64,000 nt of DNA, taken from the NCBI GenBank assembly GCA_946412015.1, contig CAMKGA010000002.1, positions 6,930 through 70,929 on the forward strand. The letters run 5' to 3'. Positions 7,900-63,989 of this stretch are shown here, piece by piece (position 1 is the first letter of the stretch; each line of letters begins with the position of its first letter). This DNA comes from an uncultured Bacillales bacterium (GTDB lineage: Bacteria; Bacillota_I; Bacilli_A; RF39; UBA660). The position numbers and the translations under genes are program-made. A model generated the notes under the pieces. The model worked only from the letters and a program-made list of their open reading frames with translations. It ran no database searches and was not told the origin of the DNA.

Positions 7900-8250
7900 G
7901 TGATAAATTTGAGAATAAATACAGAATATAGAAATGGAATACTTTTTGTAAGATTAAAGGGAAATCTTATTAGTAAAAATGTGGATTTAATGAATAAAAA
8001 GGTTACAAATCTTATATATCGAGCTGGTATTAGAAACGTAGTTTTTAATTTTGAAAAAATGAATAGAATTGATTGTAAAGGTATAAATTTGCTTTTATAT
8101 AATTATGAATTAGTAAAAAAGAATGATGGAAATATTTTTATATGTGGTGATAATGAAACGGTAAGAAAAACTTTAAGATATAATCACGTTTTTAAGTATA
8201 TTGCTGAGATAAATGATGAATTATGTGCGATGAATTTAATGAAAGGATAA
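7900..8250 (+). CDS. STAS-domain anti-sigma-factor antagonist-like protein (SpoIIAA-like, with Cys at the phospho-acceptor position)
   Basis: Aligns with B. subtilis SpoIIAA as I recall it: IRNVVFNFEKMNRIDCKGINLLL against [23 protein letters not shown]. The gene is 4 nt upstream of a SigF/G-type sigma gene. The start could be GTG 7900 or TTG 7909. Confidence 0.75.
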   Translation: MINLRINTEYRNGILFVRLKGNLISKNVDLMNKKVTNLIYRAGIRNVVFNFEKMNRIDCKGINLLLYNYELVKKNDGNIFICGDNETVRKTLRYNHVFKYIAEINDELCAMNLMKG

Positions 8251-8254
8251 TATT

Positions 8255-8905
8255 ATGAATATTGAAAGTGTTATTAATGATAATAAAAGATTAGTTTATG
8301 CAATTGCTTCGTCTTTTCCTAATTATAAAAATAAAGAAGACTTATATCAAGCAGGATATCTTGGTATTATAAAAGCATTCAATAATTTTGATCCGAGTTT
8401 AAATTGTAAGTTTTCAACTTATGCATATACATATATTTTAGGAGAAATGAAAAAAGTAATAAGGGAAGATAAAGGATATAAAGTAAGTAGAAGTATAAGT
8501 AAAATTAATTTATTGATTGAAAAAGCATATATCATTTTAAGTCAAAAACTAATGAGAAATCCATCAATACAAGAGATTGCTAGTTATTTAAATGAAGATG
8601 AATATACTATAAGTGAGGCAATTATGAGCAGCAATGTTATTATGAGTATTGATGAACCTATATTAGATGATGCAAATTGTACTTTACAAGAAGTAATAGG
8701 CAAAAGTGATAATATTGATGATTTAATTCTTTTAAAAGAAAGTATGCTTAAATTAAATGATACAGATAGAGAACTTATAAATAATAGATATATGAAAGAT
8801 TATACACAAACGGAAACATCTAATTTAATGAATATGTCACAGGTACAAGTATCGAGAAAAGAAAAAAAGATACTTAAAAAACTGAAATATGAAATGATGG
8901 TTTAA
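8255..8905 (+). CDS. Sporulation-type sigma-70 family factor (SigF/SigG-like)
   Basis: FSTYAYTYILGEMKKVIRED, YKVSRSISKI, PSIQEIASYL and YTQTETSNLMNMSQVQVSRKEKKILKKLK closely parallel SigF regions 2-4. The STAS gene lies directly upstream. Confidence 0.85.
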   Translation: MNIESVINDNKRLVYAIASSFPNYKNKEDLYQAGYLGIIKAFNNFDPSLNCKFSTYAYTYILGEMKKVIREDKGYKVSRSISKINLLIEKAYIILSQKLMRNPSIQEIASYLNEDEYTISEAIMSSNVIMSIDEPILDDANCTLQEVIGKSDNIDDLILLKESMLKLNDTDRELINNRYMKDYTQTETSNLMNMSQVQVSRKEKKILKKLKYEMMV

Positions 8906-9008: not shown

Positions 9009-9099
9009 GGAGTGGTACTCAAGAGGCTGAAGAGGCGCCCCTGCTAAGGGTGTAGACCGGGCAACTGGTGCGAGGGTTCAAATCCCTCCCACTCCGCCA
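9009..9099 (+). tRNA. tRNA-Ser (anticodon GCU), long variable arm, encoded CCA
   Basis: Acceptor GGAGTGG pairs with CCACTCC, followed by G and CCA. D-arm GTACTCAAGAGGCTGAAGAG. Anticodon loop CT-GCT-AA. Long variable arm GGTGTAGACCGGGCAACTGGTGC. T-arm GAGGG-TTCAAAT-CCCTC. The segment is GC-rich in an AT-rich background. Confidence 0.95.
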
Positions 9100-9138
9100 T
9101 TAGAAAAAATAAAACGTAAAGTTATAAAAATACTTGCG

Positions 9139-9157
9139 TTTTTTTTTTTTTTTTTTT
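9139..9157 (+). repeat. T19 homopolymer (terminator tail of the tRNA, abutting and overlapping the -35 of the pilin-like gene)
   Basis: Counted directly as 19 consecutive T. The paralogous locus has T8 at the same place (60907-60914). Confidence 0.95.
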
Positions 9158-9201
9158 GATAAACTTAATATAAAGGTAATATATAAGATAGGAGAGTGTT
9201 T

Positions 9202-10182
9202 ATGAAAAGAAAAAATGGATTTACCTTAATAGAACTAATAGCAGTATTAGTAATTTTAGCAATTTTAGCTTTAATAGTCACACCACTTGTAATGAATATT
9301 ATAAGAAAAGCTAGAATTTCAGCGGATAAAAGAAGTATTGATGCATACGGAAGAAGTGTTGAACTTGCAATAGCTACTTATCTATTGGATAATGGAGATT
9401 TTCCAACAGATATATCACAATTATCTATTGAATACTCAGGAGATAGAGTAGAATGTGAAACAACACAGCTTAATTCAGATTCATCAGTATATCTAACTGG
9501 ATGCACAGTTGGAGGAAGAAATGTAGATTATACATATGGAACAGATAAGACTCCATCAACACCAACATATACAGCGTATAGTGTAGGAGATTCAGTTACA
9601 TATAATAATGTAGATTATTATGTAATTAAAGATTCAGGAACTAATGAATCTATTGTTACGTTATTAAAAGCAGAGCCACTTACAGTAGATGAAGTTAATC
9701 TTTATGGTGTTGGTCATATAAATAACTATAGCACTTATGTATCGCAAGGAACTGCATTTGATGTAAAAGGAGATGGCTCGATAGGTGGAATGGCATATTA
9801 TAGTAGCTCATCTTGTGCATATACAAACGAATCTATTGAAGATGGCTGCATATCAGACTATGAATCGTCAGATATTAAATACGTTGTAGATTCTTGGGCT
9901 AGTGCAAATGGACTTTCAGATGCGCGATTAGTAACATATGATGAGATATACAATAATTCTGAAGAAAAGCTTAGTTGTGCATATAGTTGTTTTAATTCAC
10001 TTGTTGTAAAATATGATTGGTTATATAGTAGTGAATATGCTTATTGGGGAATGACACCATCATCTGCTGCTAAAGTTTACTACGTTCATGGTAGCGGGAG
10101 GTTACAGGATGTACAAATTTACTGGAATGATATCGCTATTCGTCCTGTCATAACTCTAAAGAAAAGTGCATTAGAAAATTAG
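9202..10182 (+). CDS. Prepilin-type N-terminal cleavage/methylation domain protein (type IV pilin/pseudopilin-like) with a large C-terminal domain
   Basis: MKRKNG/FTLIELIAVLVILAILALIV is the class III signal (G-1, F+1, E+5). ATG 9202 follows AGGAGAG. Paralogue of 60962..61894. Confidence 0.85.
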   Translation: MKRKNGFTLIELIAVLVILAILALIVTPLVMNIIRKARISADKRSIDAYGRSVELAIATYLLDNGDFPTDISQLSIEYSGDRVECETTQLNSDSSVYLTGCTVGGRNVDYTYGTDKTPSTPTYTAYSVGDSVTYNNVDYYVIKDSGTNESIVTLLKAEPLTVDEVNLYGVGHINNYSTYVSQGTAFDVKGDGSIGGMAYYSSSSCAYTNESIEDGCISDYESSDIKYVVDSWASANGLSDARLVTYDEIYNNSEEKLSCAYSCFNSLVVKYDWLYSSEYAYWGMTPSSAAKVYYVHGSGRLQDVQIYWNDIAIRPVITLKKSALEN

Positions 10183-10253: not shown

Positions 10254-11237
10254 ATGGAAGATGAAGTAGAATTTGTTGATGGTACTGATATAGAAATAAG
10301 TGAAGAGTTAGAAAAGGAACTAGGTACTTTTTTGGAACCTGGTGAACATGGCAGTAAATATAATTATACTTACGTACCACTTGAATATGTAATTAAGGAA
10401 CCCTACGAATATATTATTCCAGAGTGTATTGATGCATGTAAAGCATTTTGGGATAAAAATATAGAGACATTTATGGTTAGTAATTATGATGATGATGCTT
10501 TGTATGTATTAATTATGAATATATCAAAAGAAAATGAAGATATTGTTAAAAAATTAATGAAAGAAGATCCTAGGTATTTTTATGATGCATATAGAGAGGC
10601 TTATGGAATAAGAGTTAATGGAATGAGTAAAGGAGATTCTTTTGAATTATTAACACTTGTTGATGTATTTAAAATGCAAGATACAACGAGATACCAAAGT
10701 GAAGAAGAATATTTATGTGAATATAAAAAAACTGGTGGAGAGATGTATATTGACGATGAAGGGAGAATATTAACTAAAGAAAATCCATTGCTTAAAGATG
10801 CAACTATTACTGATGCTTTATCTGCTAATAATTGTGATAATTTATATATTAAAGAAGAAGGTAGAATATATGAAAATGAATTATTCTTATCATGGCATTT
10901 AAAGTATTTAAAATATGAGATGAATATAGTAAAAAATTATTTAGTTAGTTTAAGAGAAAATAATATAAATAGCGATATAAGTTATATTAGAGATACTTTT
11001 CTTTCTTCAGAAATGGATTTTTTAAAAGAAATATTAAGTAATTATAAAAATAGAGACTATATTAAAAATTTAAATAAATTTAGTAGTGATGCATTAATTG
11101 ATGCTGCTATAAAATTAATGGATAATATTGATAGTGGAGTTTATAGTAAAGATGAACTTGAAAAAATAGAGAAAGATATTATTTTATATTTATCTGCAAT
11201 TATAGATAAAAAAGATTCTAAATCTAAAATAAAGTGA
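10254..11237 (+). CDS. Hypothetical acidic protein (327 aa)
   Basis: Long ORF with RBS AAAGGAGAATAATAT-ATG. It ends 6 nt before the DUF1848 gene. No motif recognised. Confidence 0.65.
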   Translation: MEDEVEFVDGTDIEISEELEKELGTFLEPGEHGSKYNYTYVPLEYVIKEPYEYIIPECIDACKAFWDKNIETFMVSNYDDDALYVLIMNISKENEDIVKKLMKEDPRYFYDAYREAYGIRVNGMSKGDSFELLTLVDVFKMQDTTRYQSEEEYLCEYKKTGGEMYIDDEGRILTKENPLLKDATITDALSANNCDNLYIKEEGRIYENELFLSWHLKYLKYEMNIVKNYLVSLRENNINSDISYIRDTFLSSEMDFLKEILSNYKNRDYIKNLNKFSSDALIDAAIKLMDNIDSGVYSKDELEKIEKDIILYLSAIIDKKDSKSKIK

Positions 11238-11243
11238 TTTTGT

Positions 11244-12122
11244 ATGATACTTAATGTAAGTGGAAGAACTGATATAGTTGCTTTTTATTCTAAATGGTTT
11301 ATGAATAGATATAAGGAAGGGTTTGTAGATGTTAGAAATCCTTTTAATCCAAAATTAGTTAGTAGGATATATTTTAAAGATGTAGATTTAATAATGTTTT
11401 GTACTAAGAATCCTATACCTATTATTAAACATTTGAAAAATATTAATAAACCAATCTTATTTCATATAACACTCACGCCATATAAAAATGATATTGAGGT
11501 AAATGTTAAGAATAAAGGTTTAATAATTGAAGCAATAAAAAAGGTATCAGAAATTATAGGTATCGATAATGTTGTAGTTAGATATGATCCTATTTTTTTT
11601 AGTGATAAATATAATATTGAATATCATAAAAAAGCGTTTTCTCATATGTGTGAATTATTGGATGGCTATGTTAATAAAATAATTGTATCTTTTATGGATG
11701 AATATAAGAATGTATTAAACAATTATAATATACTTAAATATAGAAATTTCAAAGAAGATGACTATAAAGAGATAGGACTATCTTTTAGTAAGAGTGCAAA
11801 AAAGCATAATATGACAGTACAAACTTGTTACGAGGATAGAAATTTAGAAGAATATGGTTTTGTTAAAGGTGAATGTTTATCTACAACTTTAGCTTATGTT
11901 TTAACTGGAAAAAAATATAACACTTGGAAAGCTAGAAAATGTAGTTGTGCCCAGATGGTTGATATAGGAGTTTATAACACATGTAAACATTTTTGTAAGT
12001 ATTGTTATGCTAATTATGATGAGAAAAAAGTTAATATTAATTATTTGAATCATGATGTTACTTCATCATTACTTATTGGTCAAATTGAAGATTCTGATAT
12101 AATTAAAGTTAGAAATAAATAA
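11244..12122 (+). CDS. DUF1848-family protein (C-terminal radical-SAM-like Cys cluster)
   Basis: N-terminal ILNVSGRTDIVAFYSKWFMNR and the overall length fit DUF1848 as I remember it. The C-terminal CSCAQ...NTCKHFCKYCYAN contains CX3CX2C. Confidence 0.6.
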   Translation: MILNVSGRTDIVAFYSKWFMNRYKEGFVDVRNPFNPKLVSRIYFKDVDLIMFCTKNPIPIIKHLKNINKPILFHITLTPYKNDIEVNVKNKGLIIEAIKKVSEIIGIDNVVVRYDPIFFSDKYNIEYHKKAFSHMCELLDGYVNKIIVSFMDEYKNVLNNYNILKYRNFKEDDYKEIGLSFSKSAKKHNMTVQTCYEDRNLEEYGFVKGECLSTTLAYVLTGKKYNTWKARKCSCAQMVDIGVYNTCKHFCKYCYANYDEKKVNINYLNHDVTSSLLIGQIEDSDIIKVRNK

Positions 12123-46534: not shown

Positions 46535-47266
46535 GTGAAATTGAATAATCGTGGATTTGCTATTTCTACTATGATGTATATGATTTTAATATTAGCTATT
46601 ACATTAACTGCTACTTTTTTAATCATATTAAATGGTAGAAGTAAAGTACTAAATAATTTAAGGAATAAAGTACAAAATGAAATAAATGATAAAGGAAATG
46701 TTAATGATTATATTTGTATTGGTAATAATAACGGAAATAATCAAGTAGGAGATAAGTATACTTGTACTGTATCTAATACGGAAGAATATGATTTTTATGT
46801 TATTAGTAGTGATTCTGCAAGTGTTAATTTAGTAATGTCAGAAGCACTTACTTTTAGTAAAGGAAATTATGGTGCTGCTGATGATGTAAAAACAGAATCT
46901 AAAGTTGCGTATATTACTGATACAGATTATAGTGTATCTAATGTATATAAGCCTATTACTGCTCTTAAGGTGCTAAAAAGAATTACTGATAACTGGTTTT
47001 ATTTGGATGATAGAACTGACACTGTAAATGATATAGATTATACAGGATATAAAGCAAGATTAATTGCTTTATCTGATATAAATAATTTTGTATCTGAAGA
47101 TAAACTAACAATAGATTTTATTTCTGATACATTAACTAGTACAATTTCTAGTGATAATAATATATATAGTATTAGTGATAATACACTAATAGATGATAAG
47201 GATGTTACTGATGAATACAAAGTTGTACCGATTATTACTGTTGGTGTTGATAAAATTAAAAATTAA
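46535..47266 (+). CDS. Pseudopilin-like protein (degenerate prepilin signal, no Glu+5) sharing the C-terminal module of the two other pilin-like paralogues
   Basis: MKLNNRG/FAISTMMYMILILAITL. DFYVISSDSASVNLVMSEAL parallels DYYVIKDS...VTLLKAEPL, and the C-terminal VVPIITV parallels IRPVITL. Confidence 0.6.
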   Translation: MKLNNRGFAISTMMYMILILAITLTATFLIILNGRSKVLNNLRNKVQNEINDKGNVNDYICIGNNNGNNQVGDKYTCTVSNTEEYDFYVISSDSASVNLVMSEALTFSKGNYGAADDVKTESKVAYITDTDYSVSNVYKPITALKVLKRITDNWFYLDDRTDTVNDIDYTGYKARLIALSDINNFVSEDKLTIDFISDTLTSTISSDNNIYSISDNTLIDDKDVTDEYKVVPIITVGVDKIKN

Positions 47267-47336: not shown

Positions 47337-47553
47337 AATTTTAAAAACTTTGAACTTGAGGAGTATATTATATTTAATTTATAGAGAGTTATCATTTGGT
47401 GGAAGATAATAATTAAAGTAATAGAAGGTAGCAAGGGAGTTTAATATTTGAATTAAGTAGAATGTTACGTTACATGCGTTAAATGTTTAAGGTAGTTTAT
47501 ACTACGAATTAAGGTGGTACCACGCCAAGCGTCCTTATAAGGATGCTTTTTTT
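47337..47553 (+). promoter_or_regulatory. T-box riboswitch leader (probable Val specifier GUA)
   Basis: Stem I AGAGAG (47383-47388) and GGTGGAAG distal motif. Candidate specifier GTA followed by A at 47418-47421. The conserved T-box AATTAAGGTGGTACCACG lies at 47507-47524. The terminator stem GCGTCC/GGATGC plus T7 lies at 47530-47553. The operon ends in valS. Confidence 0.88.
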
Positions 47554-60665: not shown

Positions 60666-60961
60666 TTACCAAAAAAAGAAAATTAGAAGTGATTTGAAGA
60701 AAATCTACACAAAATATAAAGCGTGTAGCTTTTTTTTATGGTAAAATTAATATAAAGAGAATATATATGGGATGAGAATATCGACACTTTACTAGAGAAG
60801 ATAAAATTAAAGATGTAAAGATAATATTAATTGAAATAACTGGTCTGATAAAAGAATAGATAGAAAATATTTGACTTTAAGTAAAAAGTACGCAATAAAT
60901 CTTGCGTTTTTTTTGATAGACTTAATATAAAGGTAATATATAAGATAGGAGAAGTGATTAT

Positions 60962-61894
60962 ATGAAGAAAAAAGCATTTACCTTAATAGAATTAATAGCA
61001 TTATTAGTAATACTAGCAATACTAGCGTTAATAGTGACACCGCTTGTTATGAATATAATAAGAAAAGCTAGAATATCTGCAGATAAAAGAAGTATTGATG
61101 CATACGGGAAAAGTATTGAGCTTGCTATAGCATCATATTTAATTGATGAAGGAAAGTTTCCAACAGATATGTCACAGTTATCTATAGAATATACAGGAGA
61201 TGAAGTAGTATGTACTACAACTCAGCTAAATAGTGATTCATCAGTATATCTATCTGGTTGTACAGTTGCAGGAAGAAATGTAGATGGATATACATATGGA
61301 AAAGAAGAAGTAATTACGTATGATGCATATAGTGTAGGAAATGAAGTTACATATAATAATGTAGATTATTATGTAATTAAAGATTCGTCTACTTTTGAAT
61401 CAACTGTAACACTATTAAAAGCAGAACCATTATCATATGAAGAAGTTCAGATTTATTCTGAGGGAACTGGAGCACAAACTTCAAATGAAAATGGTTATGG
61501 TGGAATGAAATATCATTCAGAAAGTAGAGATTATTCAAATTCATATGTAAAAAATACAGTAGATGCATGGGCGTCTGCAAATGTACCAGTGGCAATAGAA
61601 ACAAGATTAATTACTTTTGATGAATTAGTTGATAATTTGGGGTATGAGCAAGACCAAACCGTCGTTACTATGATGAGGCCAAATCAAGCCAATACTCCAA
61701 GTTGGGTATATAATAATCAATATTATTATTATACAATGTCACCTGCAGCAGATAATTTTAGAGAAGATAGTATTATTGTATATTCTGTTAGTAAGTTTGG
61801 TTATCTTATTTATAGCGATAACCCATACGATGGAACTGGTGGTTTTGGAGTTGTCCGTCCAGTTATAGTACTTCCTAAAACAGCACTTAACTAA
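60962..61894 (+). CDS. Prepilin-type N-terminal domain protein, paralogue of 9202..10182 (Ala at the -1 cleavage position)
   Basis: MKKKA/FTLIELIALLVILAILALIVTPLVMNIIRKARISADKRSIDAYG is nearly identical to the first paralogue. The central segment YNNVDYYVIKDS..VTLLKAEPL and the end VRPVIVLPKTAL are shared. The region between them is divergent. Confidence 0.85.
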   Translation: MKKKAFTLIELIALLVILAILALIVTPLVMNIIRKARISADKRSIDAYGKSIELAIASYLIDEGKFPTDMSQLSIEYTGDEVVCTTTQLNSDSSVYLSGCTVAGRNVDGYTYGKEEVITYDAYSVGNEVTYNNVDYYVIKDSSTFESTVTLLKAEPLSYEEVQIYSEGTGAQTSNENGYGGMKYHSESRDYSNSYVKNTVDAWASANVPVAIETRLITFDELVDNLGYEQDQTVVTMMRPNQANTPSWVYNNQYYYYTMSPAADNFREDSIIVYSVSKFGYLIYSDNPYDGTGGFGVVRPVIVLPKTALN

Positions 61895-62519: not shown

Positions 62520-63989
62520 ATGAATTTATCAAAATCAAAGTATTGTAATGGAATACAGTGTAAAAAAATGTTATGGTTAGATAAGTATAAGAGTGATGTT
62601 AAAGAAGATGTTGATAATTCTTCTATTATGGATAATGGTAATGATGTACATGAAGTAGCACGTAAATTATTTGGTGATGATATAAATATTCAATTTAATG
62701 AGAATTTAAATGTTATGATTGAGGATACTAAAGAAGCTTTAAAATGTGATAAAGTAGTAATTACAGAAGCATCTTTTGCCTACAAAAATAATTTTTGTAG
62801 TGTTGATATTTTGGTTAAAGATGGTAATTTTTATGATATATATGAGGTGAAAAGTTCTACACATTTAAAGGATGTATTTAAAACAGATTTATCGTATCAA
62901 GTATATGTATTAACTAAATTAGGATATAATGTTAGAAAGAGTTTTGTAGTTATTATTAATAGTAATTATGAATATCACGATCATTTAGAATTAGATAAAT
63001 TATTTATAAAAATTGATTTAACTGAAGAGATGATAGATAAACAAAAATATATAGAAGATAATATTAAAGGTATTAATGATTATGTAGATGATAGTAAAGA
63101 GAAGGAAAGTGTAATTAGTATTAATTGTTTTGAACCATATAAGTGTCCATATTTTAAATATTGTACTAGTAGTATAGATAAACCCAATGTATTTGATATT
63201 AGATCATTATCAAATAAAAAAAAGATAGAACTATATAATAATGGTTTTAAAAATTATAAAGAATTATTAAAATCTAATATAAATGATAAATATAAAATGC
63301 AGATAGAATATGATTTAAATAATAAACAAGATTATATAGATAAAAATAAAATTAAAGAATTTTTAGATACACTTTCATACCCATTATATTTTTTAGATTT
63401 TGAAACTTTTCAAATGTCTATTCCAAAATATGAAGGTGTAAAACCATATATGCAAGTACCTTTTCAATACTCACTACATTATTATGATAAAAATGGAGTA
63501 TTAAAGCATAAGGAATTTTTAGGTGATTCTAATACTGATCCTAGAAGATCTTTAGCTGAAAGATTAGTTAAAGATATAAAAAAAGATACATGCATTTTAG
63601 CTTACAACATGTCATTTGAAAAAAATGTTATTAAGAATTTAGCTAGTTTATATCCTGATTTAAAAGATGATTTAGATAATATTTATAATAATATAAAAGA
63701 TTTAATGATTCCTTTTAAAAATAGATATTATTATAATAAAGATATGCATGGATCATATTCAATAAAATATGTATTGCCAGCACTTTTTAAAGATGATCCT
63801 ACTCTTGATTATCATAATCTTGATTTAGTACATAACGGGAGTGAAGCTATGAATATATTTGCTAATTTAAGTAGTTATAGTGCTGATGAACAAGAAAAAA
63901 TTAGAAAAAGTTTGCTTGAATATTGTTGTCTTGATACATATGCAATGGTAAAAATATATGATTATTTGAATGATATAGTAAAGGAGTAA
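62520..63989 (+). CDS. DUF2779-family protein (PD-(D/E)xK nuclease-like N-terminal half, DEDD/RNase-H-like C-terminal half)
   Basis: The N-terminal LSKSKYCNGIQCKKMLWL is the DUF2779 hallmark. SVDILVK....YDIYEVKSS is a D...ExK motif. There is a Cys cluster CFEPYKCPYFKYC, and YFLDFETF is DxE exonuclease motif I-like. Confidence 0.75.
   Translation: MNLSKSKYCNGIQCKKMLWLDKYKSDVKEDVDNSSIMDNGNDVHEVARKLFGDDINIQFNENLNVMIEDTKEALKCDKVVITEASFAYKNNFCSVDILVKDGNFYDIYEVKSSTHLKDVFKTDLSYQVYVLTKLGYNVRKSFVVIINSNYEYHDHLELDKLFIKIDLTEEMIDKQKYIEDNIKGINDYVDDSKEKESVISINCFEPYKCPYFKYCTSSIDKPNVFDIRSLSNKKKIELYNNGFKNYKELLKSNINDKYKMQIEYDLNNKQDYIDKNKIKEFLDTLSYPLYFLDFETFQMSIPKYEGVKPYMQVPFQYSLHYYDKNGVLKHKEFLGDSNTDPRRSLAERLVKDIKKDTCILAYNMSFEKNVIKNLASLYPDLKDDLDNIYNNIKDLMIPFKNRYYYNKDMHGSYSIKYVLPALFKDDPTLDYHNLDLVHNGSEAMNIFANLSSYSADEQEKIRKSLLEYCCLDTYAMVKIYDYLNDIVKE

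Follow-up and report, generated by a model that had tools for sequence, protein, structure and literature searches.

The 64,000-nucleotide stretch analysed here (the window, which ends at C2:70929) comes from an uncultured Bacillales bacterium and carries, on the same strand, two paralogous genes, gene A (9202..10182, 326 aa) and gene B (60962..61894, 310 aa). By the definition of Raynaud et al. (PMC8179133), both are predicted to be modular type IV pilins, whose second module, behind the pilin module, is lectin-like. They belong to a family of about 32 pilins which, as we propose with a probability of about 0.75, would be served by one pilus machine, expose the lectin-like module as a tip, diversify it and be switched copy by copy. 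The host is a 1.7-Mb gut or rumen bacterium with a small genome, a member of the Bacilli; its assembly (1.69 Mb, 25% GC, 57 contigs, 93% complete) consists of the contigs designated C1, C2 and so on below.

A reading of the window made earlier without database searches (the sequence-only reading) had already described a prepilin-type family with a conserved stalk, conserved expression signals and a variable exposed part. This view was supported, and the family proved larger than claimed. Three points go beyond it: sister paralogues are targets of diversity-generating retroelements (DGRs), the T-runs ahead of the genes are read as repeats in promoter spacers, and a third gene counted into the family is no demonstrable member of it.

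Two modular pilins of a large family

The prepilin N-methylation motif was the sole match in the Pfam scan of both proteins. PF07963 (N_methyl, cut-off 21.2 bits) scored 34.3 bits in gene A and 20.1 bits (E 4.7e-4), slightly under the cut-off, in gene B. Glu5 and Phe at +1 are present in both, the predicted cleavage sites reading KNG/FTLIE in A and KKA/FTLIE in B, and a hydrophobic stretch that forms the long alpha-1 helix comes next. The AlphaFold2 model of gene A (predicted local distance difference test, pLDDT, 91.3) consists of a helix (9-64), a small beta sheet (83-108) and a separate alpha/beta module (123-326), and two invariant cysteines lie within the beta-sheet head of the N module. 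A profile of 121 homologues matched the N-termini of the MshA, GspG and PilE pilins in the PDB. What Raynaud et al. (2021) ask of a modular pilin, namely a complete small pilin module joined to an independent fold which is also found off pilins, was found here in both parts.

The identity of the second module was approached through its predicted fold. Foldseek searches of the PDB with the gene A model gave the IgA peptidase of Thomasclavelia ramosa, 9qa6, as the top match (E 1.5e-4, probability 0.99), followed by the C-terminal domain of Legionella Lcl, EgtB and the CD23 lectin domains; 8q4e was also matched. Among viral models, several phage "DUF6273 domain-containing" and DUF1566 proteins were matched with a probability of 1.0. 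The N-terminal domain of 9qa6 is annotated as DUF6273 (PMC12402451), for which a C-type lectin fold and a role as DGR target in phage receptor-binding proteins have been described (PMC10743442). The likeness to DUF6273 that the sequence-only reading had pointed out holds at the level of the modelled fold; in sequence it was recovered for some paralogues and database relatives, while A and B themselves stay under the Pfam score. PF19789 (DUF6273, gathering threshold 23.5 bits) gave weak matches on 18 paralogues. When scores were summed, four frames passed, three of them in paralogues of ~490 aa (C14, C26 and C27) and one beside a 199-aa pilin on C33; the C26 pilin reached 25.6 bits, above the threshold, and the domain is annotated on many database relatives at 60% identity. 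The module also occurs in a broken gene at C22:29934-31467 (one in-frame stop, one frameshift), which encodes a Sec signal peptide, two tandem C modules and a C-terminal membrane anchor. Therefore, the lectin-like module has also been used on a non-pilin surface protein.

The genome was searched at the protein level and then with jackhmmer over all stop-to-stop open reading frames (ORFs), which revealed 32 genes with a strongly matching N domain, which together occupy ~36 kb or 2.1% of the genome DNA. Seventeen have the N+C architecture of A and B (303-355 aa), five an N+N'+C architecture in which head residues ~38-108 are duplicated (~400-436 aa), and eight carry N+N' ahead of a longer, other DUF6273-type C module (~480-490 aa); a single variant architecture of 411 aa and an N domain alone (124 aa) complete the set. 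Broken copies and fragments are also present. The assembly is a short-read one (k=55) whose contig ends overlap by 55 nt, and ~10 family copies lie at contig ends; the family therefore breaks the assembly. The comparison set comprised seven congeneric genomes (including G002, G004 and G007) and 17 other genera of the same taxonomic family. All seven congeners carry the pilin family, with 8-36 matches each, and none of the 17 other genera searched does. More than 2,100 relatives were found in the protein collection, the closest named records being metagenome-assembled genomes of uncultured "Erysipelotrichaceae" and "Bacillales", the nearest of them from rumen; exact-protein look-ups of A and B in other assemblies returned no identical protein. 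Judged from these searches, the family is genus-specific and very large.

The two genes of the window are 52% identical over their full length (BLASTP E 7e-91), and the identity is distributed unevenly. The sequence-only reading had described an upstream CTTGCG with a T-run, a conserved upstream block, about 115 nearly identical N-terminal residues and a shared AYSVG..KAEPL segment, then strong divergence before a re-convergence on RPVI.L, all of which alignment bore out. Gene A has CTTGCG-T19 where gene B has a TTGCGT hairpin arm running into T8. The block behind the T-run differs at a single base, and the FTLIEL..YTYG segment matches at 93 of 108 residues (86%; DNA 84.7%). The AYSVG..KAEPL segment is 83.3% identical in DNA. 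Over the remainder, which contains many indels, identity falls to 58% (DNA) and 36% (protein, 50/139), and (I/V)RPVI.L ends both proteins. An assembly artefact as the source of the shared 5' parts was dismissed: each gene is embedded in a unique context within a single 93-kb contig, and even their conserved parts differ at ~15% of positions.

The comparison of paralogues along the gene, which had been proposed with the sequence-only reading, was performed on the 17 N+C genes. The ratio of nonsynonymous to synonymous change (dN/dS) rose from 0.17 in the N module to 0.39 where the C module starts and 0.60 over its remaining part; these values are rough, since the proportion of synonymous differences (pS) is near saturation. 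The median pS is 0.49-0.57 in all segments. As it is high everywhere, the family is evidently old, and the N module has been kept by selection and not by recent copying alone. In the pair C4_26941/C15_56, pS is 0.05 in N and 0.55 in C. Moreover, the nearest paralogue of gene A is C15_56 over codons 1-50, gene B over codons 51-110 and C7_39261 over the C module, and the nearest paralogue of gene B likewise changes by segment. The genes are therefore mosaics.

This arrangement resembles pilE/pilS of Neisseria in the conserved N-part, the variable C-part, the many copies and the mosaic recombination, and differs from it in that no single expression locus receives sequence from silent copies lacking promoters. 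Each of the 32 copies begins with a start codon of its own, and a ribosome-binding site and a promoter-like region precede most of them. Candidates for pilS-like silent cassettes were sought among C-only copies; these proved to be the broken Sec-signal gene on C22 or fragments.

Promoter cassettes and putative spacer repeats

The block shared by A and B is part of a wider cassette. T(n)-GATAGACTTAATATAAAGGTAATATATAAGATAGGAG precedes 13 genes, which represent all three main architectures, and the homology between their copies begins abruptly at the T-run, reaches 96% in the core and declines to ~60% by codon 110. An ancient regulatory element was considered and rejected: the 13 copies here compare with none in the seven congeners (at most three mismatches), which have cassettes of their own. 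Within-species 5' conversion tracts, i.e., concerted evolution, would fit the pattern. A scan of the window with Rfam returned the tRNA and a T-box only, and the conserved leader was unmatched.

The surroundings of the cassette point to a companion gene. Intact Rpn/PDDEXK_2 genes (PF12784) lie directly upstream of the pilin at five family loci (Table 1), where the hairpin is the Rpn terminator, and nine copies or fragments of such genes are present in the genome. The terminator scan called the hairpin ahead of gene B and none ahead of gene A. Upstream of gene B, the last 15 codons of an Rpn gene survive, and the region matches the intact Rpn-pilin junction on C22 over 123 nt of DNA (85%). The hairpin of gene B is thus a predicted terminator of a former Rpn gene. 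Rpn nucleases ("recombination-promoting nuclease/putative transposase") may drive the exchange of 5' cassettes, or may merely travel along. A degenerate cassette (T8-ATGGTAAAATTAATATAAAGAGAATATATATGGGATGAGAAT, 60730-60790) is also found ~180 nt upstream of gene B, ahead of the Rpn relic; it may have served the deleted Rpn gene as its promoter, or may be what is left of a pilin cassette.

In the promoters of the family in this genome, T6-19 stands between a -35-like hexamer (TTGCGT, TTGTCT or TTGACA) and a -10-like TA(G/A/T)A(C/A)T. The spacers implied for the 13 cassette genes are 8, 9, 9, 9, 10, 15, 15, 17, 17, 18, 19, 19 and 20, with A at 20 and B at 9. The whole genome contains 11 A/T runs of at least 12; four of the five runs of 16-19 sit 45-48 nt ahead of a family start codon, and most of the shorter ones lie within ~170 nt of a contig end, three such ends being mutually 80-93% alike. 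The congeners show the same layout, and with them the position of the repeat fits in four species. G007 has TTGCGT-T16-AGTAGAAT twice (spacer 17) and a T8 version once, G004 has T21 and T27, and G002 has TTG(CAA/ATA/TAA/TCA)-(TA)n-G-TATAAT/TATACT with spacers of 9, 15, 15, 15 and 19. Different repeat types in the same promoter position across species are what is expected of slipped-strand phase variation, and the pattern suggests that the promoters of the family vary in this way. Expression would then probably be switched for each copy by slippage in the simple-sequence repeat of its spacer.

Repeats between the -35 and -10 hexamers are well known from vlp of Mycoplasma hyorhinis (poly-A), hifA/B of Haemophilus influenzae ((TA)n) and opc/porA of Neisseria meningitidis (poly-C/G). 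The family would share with these promoters a homopolymer or (TA)n placed exactly between -35-like and -10-like hexamers of surface-protein genes, and also paralogues that differ in repeat length within a multigene surface family, here in a small-genome, low-GC relative of Mollicutes. It differs in that switching is known in those systems and is only proposed here, in that an upstream terminator uses the repeat as its tail and in that two length classes, ~6-10 and 16-19, can be told apart. The genes so controlled encode pilins and no lipoproteins.

A simpler account holds that nothing is switched: the hairpin and T-run would be the terminator of the upstream Rpn or tRNA gene, the cassette would be a constitutive promoter and leader that was duplicated together with the gene, and the copies would be co-expressed or obey one regulator. 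A hairpin with T8 is indeed a normal terminator, and it follows the Rpn gene at the intact loci. Five of the 13 cassette copies have T6-9 and spacers of only 8-10, out of reach of 17 by small slips, and a core as conserved as that of the cassette is what a regulator-binding or leader element would show. Tracts of T16-T27, on the other hand, far exceed what a terminator needs; long tracts are essentially confined, genome-wide, to family promoters at their fixed distance from the start codon; and the variable (TA)n of G002, flanked by unmistakable TTGNNA and TATAAT hexamers, cannot act as a terminator and follows the classic design of a repeat-controlled promoter. We regard this simpler account as possible, if somewhat doubtful. 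Several observations weigh against the proposed switching: the spacers of A and B are off the 17±1 of active promoters, the short T-runs may be mere terminator tails, other promoter hexamers can be read (TTGATA-N18-TATATA, or a -10 at TAATAT), and the lengths of long homopolymers are uncertain in a short-read assembly.

Pilus machinery and retroelements

The statement of the sequence-only reading that no pilus machinery lies near the genes is true of the window, and whole-genome profile searches placed the components on other contigs only. A prepilin peptidase, on which the prepilin interpretation depends, is present: PilD (Peptidase_A24, 65 bits) at C21:15186-15944, next to PilC with two T2SSF domains (C21:13796-15181). 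A PilB-type ATPase of 677 aa (T2SSE, 409 bits) is found at C16:15336-17369, where it adjoins two further pilin-like genes. The C21 locus also encodes the 124-aa pilin, which matches the N module of gene A at 67% identity and is the probable major pilin, and between it and pilD a membrane protein of the Wzy_C/O-antigen-ligase type (C21:15976-17388). Judged by this position, the major pilin may be glycosylated; loci with an O-glycosylated major pilin have a similar arrangement of pilD, ligase and short pilin. A separate Tad locus is present on C9. The single weak PilM_2 match was rejected as a PilM candidate, since it is FtsA, beside FtsZ. In the same cell-division cluster, beside ftsA/ftsZ, a 514-aa pilin-like protein (C1:14860-16404, KKG/FTLIE) has a large internal tandem duplication.

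In the mechanism which we propose, the single peptidase PilD would cleave the pilins of the family, and one minimal machine (PilB, PilC and the 124-aa pilin) would build them into or onto its filament. The conserved N module would be the adaptor that fits the filament, and the variable module would be the exposed ligand-binding tip, probably for glycans. The closest precedent is found in Streptococcus sanguinis, whose pili incorporate two modular pilins, PilB with a vWA module and PilC with a concanavalin-A-like lectin module (PMC8179133, PMC9934059). As there, a small pilin module, a short linker and a bulky, here putatively ligand-binding module are combined in a monoderm host, and short major pilins would be assembled by the same machine. 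In contrast to S. sanguinis, where the two modular pilins lie in the pil locus, ~32 paralogues are scattered over the chromosome, their module has a C-type-lectin/DUF6273 fold, many copies have Ala at -1 and some are DGR targets.

Several findings speak against this mechanism. PilM/N/O and PilT were not found in the whole-genome searches; because of this, the machine may be Com-like or like a type II secretion system (T2SS) and not a classical adhesive pilus. PF19789 gave no match at E<=1 on A and B, which are absent from the 18 paralogues matched. Ala stands at -1 in 12 of the 32 paralogues (gene B and 11 others), and Ala at this position is cleaved poorly by many prepilin peptidases. In G007, Ala is found at -1 in all 15 copies where the prepilin motif was found; it is therefore normal for the genus and no defect.

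The missing components and the Ala residues would also suit a different role, in which the prepilin signal serves only for export and for membrane or surface anchoring and the proteins act as single receptors or adhesins, or in a short pseudopilus, like archaeal sugar-binding proteins with class III signal peptides or T2SS/Com pseudopilins. A bulky module of 200-370 residues per subunit would be hard to pack along a filament, and in the broken gene on C22 the C module follows an ordinary Sec signal peptide and precedes a membrane anchor. We consider this role unlikely. A pilin of the size of the N module beside pilC-pilD and a Wzy_C ligase is the layout of a locus for a real fibre, the strong purifying selection on the N module, including its globular head, fits subunit packing better than a membrane anchor, and S. 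sanguinis provides the precedent for incorporation.

Three sources of diversity are proposed for these pilins and their lectin-fold tip. Old duplication, with relaxed or diversifying selection on the tip, would be the first; recombination or gene conversion would have spread the common promoter and 5' cassette among divergent copies; and in at least six sister paralogues DGR mutagenesis would alter the final ~25 residues of that fold. The last source was recognized when a whole-genome RVT_1 search placed reverse transcriptases next to family members, RVT_1 and bAvd (PF22296) occurring together on C13, C26 and C8. On C13 the order is a pilin (N+C, 61% identical to gene A), a MutS_I-like gene, bAvd, the reverse transcriptase and a template repeat; the template and the variable region at the 3' end of the pilin differ by 17 mismatches, 16 of which fall on template adenines. 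On C26 a pilin of 490 aa is followed by a template repeat, a 93-aa ORF, bAvd and the reverse transcriptase. Templates related to that of C26 occur at one end of C39 and on C8, whose reverse transcriptase carries a frameshift, and variable regions of the C26 type were found in the pilins of C26, C32, C39, C43 and C27, with 66-82% of the mismatches at adenines. Thus at least six sister paralogues (C13, C26, C32, C39, C43 and C27) are DGR targets. The paralogues of C7 and C25 are possible further targets, as they have GC-rich tails like variable regions and no assembled template.

The effect of this mutagenesis can be followed in the alignment of the 121 homologues. Column entropy exceeds 3 bits where the C13 template encodes Asn, just ahead of VRPVI, while the V, W, G and L positions in between are conserved, as is the closing VRPVI. 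From this entropy map, the divergence and re-convergence on RPVI.L noted above is partly the footprint of a DGR variable region ahead of a conserved 3' end. In gene A, the equivalent of that variable region is formed by the final ~25 residues preceding RPVI. C-type-lectin-fold DGR proteins are known as Mtd of Bordetella phage, TvpA of Treponema denticola, the phage "tentaclins" and DUF6273/DUF1566 targets (PMC10743442). The sister paralogues agree with them in that the C-terminal end of their lectin fold is variable and in adenine-specific mismatches, and the loci agree with known DGRs in the adjacent bAvd and reverse transcriptase and in one template for several targets. They differ in that the carrier is a type IV pilin module and that A and B match no template. 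A GspG-type pilin domain has been listed among rare DGR targets (PMC11661182); our full-text literature search found no paper studying a pilin-type DGR target, the surveys giving it passing mention only.

Gene A and gene B stand apart from these targets. Their tails do not align with any template repeat in the assembly, the best local matches being 16-17 nt, and no DGR-type reverse transcriptase with Avd lies in cis within the window. As they share the scaffold of the targeted paralogues and match no template, A and B look like fixed descendants of DGR-diversified copies. A reverse transcriptase of 310 aa (RVT_1, 72 bits) does lie 2.7 kb downstream of gene B, past the window end, at C2:71502-72434. 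It was rejected as part of a DGR, having neither a template/variable pair nor Avd, and is probably of a retron-like or other defence type. Its region (C2:70921-72434) is downstream of a DUF2779/Cas4-like protein, and window positions 62520-63989 are also concerned; the 129-aa ORF ahead of the reverse transcriptase we take by eye, on its sequence alone, to be NUDIX-like. That A and B are themselves current DGR targets, which would explain their C-terminal divergence, is very improbable: they share the scaffold of the C13 paralogue, B carries GTTGTCCGTCCAG, resembling an initiation-of-mutagenic-homing (IMH) site and 12/13 identical to the final 13 bases of the C13 variable region, GTTGTCCGCCCAG, and a reverse transcriptase is near, but no template fits their tails, the GC content of the equivalent region is 0.42 in A and 0.36 in B against 0.45-0.56 in true variable regions, that reverse transcriptase lacks its DGR partners, and the divergence covers the whole 200-residue module with many indels, far beyond the tail.

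Neighbouring genes and significance

The coordinates of the features are collected in Table 1. A third gene of the window had been taken for a more distant member of the family because it keeps the same C-terminal landmarks. It is conserved (69 relatives at 50-95% identity), and its AlphaFold2 model (pLDDT 85) shows a long helix and an alpha/beta module. A profile-profile comparison by hhalign related it to the family with 86% probability (E 4.7e-6) over 38 columns only, Y.VGD..YYVI..V.L..E.L at the start of the C module; this match alone survived, as BLASTP (E 0.13), jackhmmer and profile-versus-sequence searches against the family were all non-significant, and the fold search gave no significant match, its weak top hits including C-type lectins. 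Membership was therefore rejected, and the gene may at best be a remote relative of the start of the C module.

Directly 3' of the third gene, a T-box leader (47341-47539, 123 bits) stands ahead of a 350-aa protein that fits no clear family; an HD-domain protein and an ORF of 843 aa come next. Just upstream of the tRNA-Ser and gene A, a STAS-domain protein of the anti-sigma antagonist type and a 216-aa sigma-70 family factor are encoded at 7900-8905. On the other side of gene A, positions 10254-12122 directly downstream encode an acidic orphan protein of 327 aa and, behind it, a DUF1848 protein (284 bits).

Table 1. Positions of the pilin genes, their promoter regions and associated features (window coordinates unless a contig is given).
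Feature	Position	Strand	Remarks
tRNA-Ser(GCU)	9009..9099	+	ARAGORN; Rfam tRNA 51 bits; directly upstream of gene A promoter region
ACTTGCG + T19 (9139-9157)	9132..9157	+	-35-like TTGCGT; T-run as spacer to -10-like TAAACT, spacer 20
Gene A promoter/leader cassette GATAAACTTAATATAAAGGTAATATATAAGATAGGAGA	9158..9195	+	ends in ribosome-binding site AGGAGA
Gene A, pilin module	9202..9540	+	predicted class III signal peptide MKRKNG/FTLIE, alpha-1 helix, small beta-sheet head, Cys85/Cys101
Gene A, C-type-lectin-like (DUF6273-like) module	9568..10182	+	residues ~123-326, ending IAIRPVITLKKSALEN
Third gene	46535..47266	+	243 aa, single copy; pilin-like N-terminus NNRG/FAIST without Glu5; alpha/beta module
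Relic, 3' end of Rpn/PDDEXK_2 nuclease gene (LIEITGLIKE*IENI)	60827..60871	+	tblastn 80% over 15 aa; last 15 codons
Hairpin ACGCAATAAATCTTGCGT	60890..60914	+	6-bp stem ACGCAA/TTGCGT at 60890-60907; final T opens T8 (60907-60914)
Gene B promoter/leader cassette	60915..60952	+	37/38 identical to gene A copy
Gene B, predicted modular pilin paralogue	60962..61894	+	310 aa; MKKKA/FTLIE; divergent lectin-like module ending GVVRPVIVLPKTALN
38-nt block GATA(A/G)ACTTAATATAAAGGTAATATATAAGATAGGAGA	9158-9195 vs 60915-60952		37/38 identical
Rpn gene upstream of pilin	C22:21420-22343		same strand as pilin
Rpn gene upstream of pilin	C25:1084-1938		same strand as pilin
Rpn gene upstream of pilin	C32:17188-18021		same strand as pilin
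Rpn gene upstream of pilin	C23:32035-32475		same strand as pilin
Rpn gene upstream of pilin	C33:6086-6979		same strand as pilin

The constituents of this system are of known kinds, namely modular pilins, C-type-lectin DGR targets and repeat-controlled promoters, and it is their scale and combination that is unusual. Type IV pili usually consist of one major and a few minor pilins, whereas about 2% of a 1.7-Mb genome is spent here on ~32 pilins, a large and genus-wide case of the "grafted module" strategy. The family is also natural material on which positions of a C-type-lectin surface tolerate variation. If the promoters switch, a changing subset of adhesins would be displayed on one pilus, which would bear on attachment to particles, host glycans and cells and on evasion of pilus-targeting phages or immunity. 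More tentatively, one machine might serve ~32 interchangeable lectin-tipped pilins under three stacked mechanisms, slippage in the spacers that turns each gene on or off independently, cassette exchange possibly promoted by Rpn, and multi-target DGRs that hypermutate the ligand-binding surface of a subset; we put this forward as a speculative extension. If true, it would be a pilus-based counterpart of the variable-surface-protein systems of mycoplasmas in genome-reduced Bacilli of the gut or rumen.

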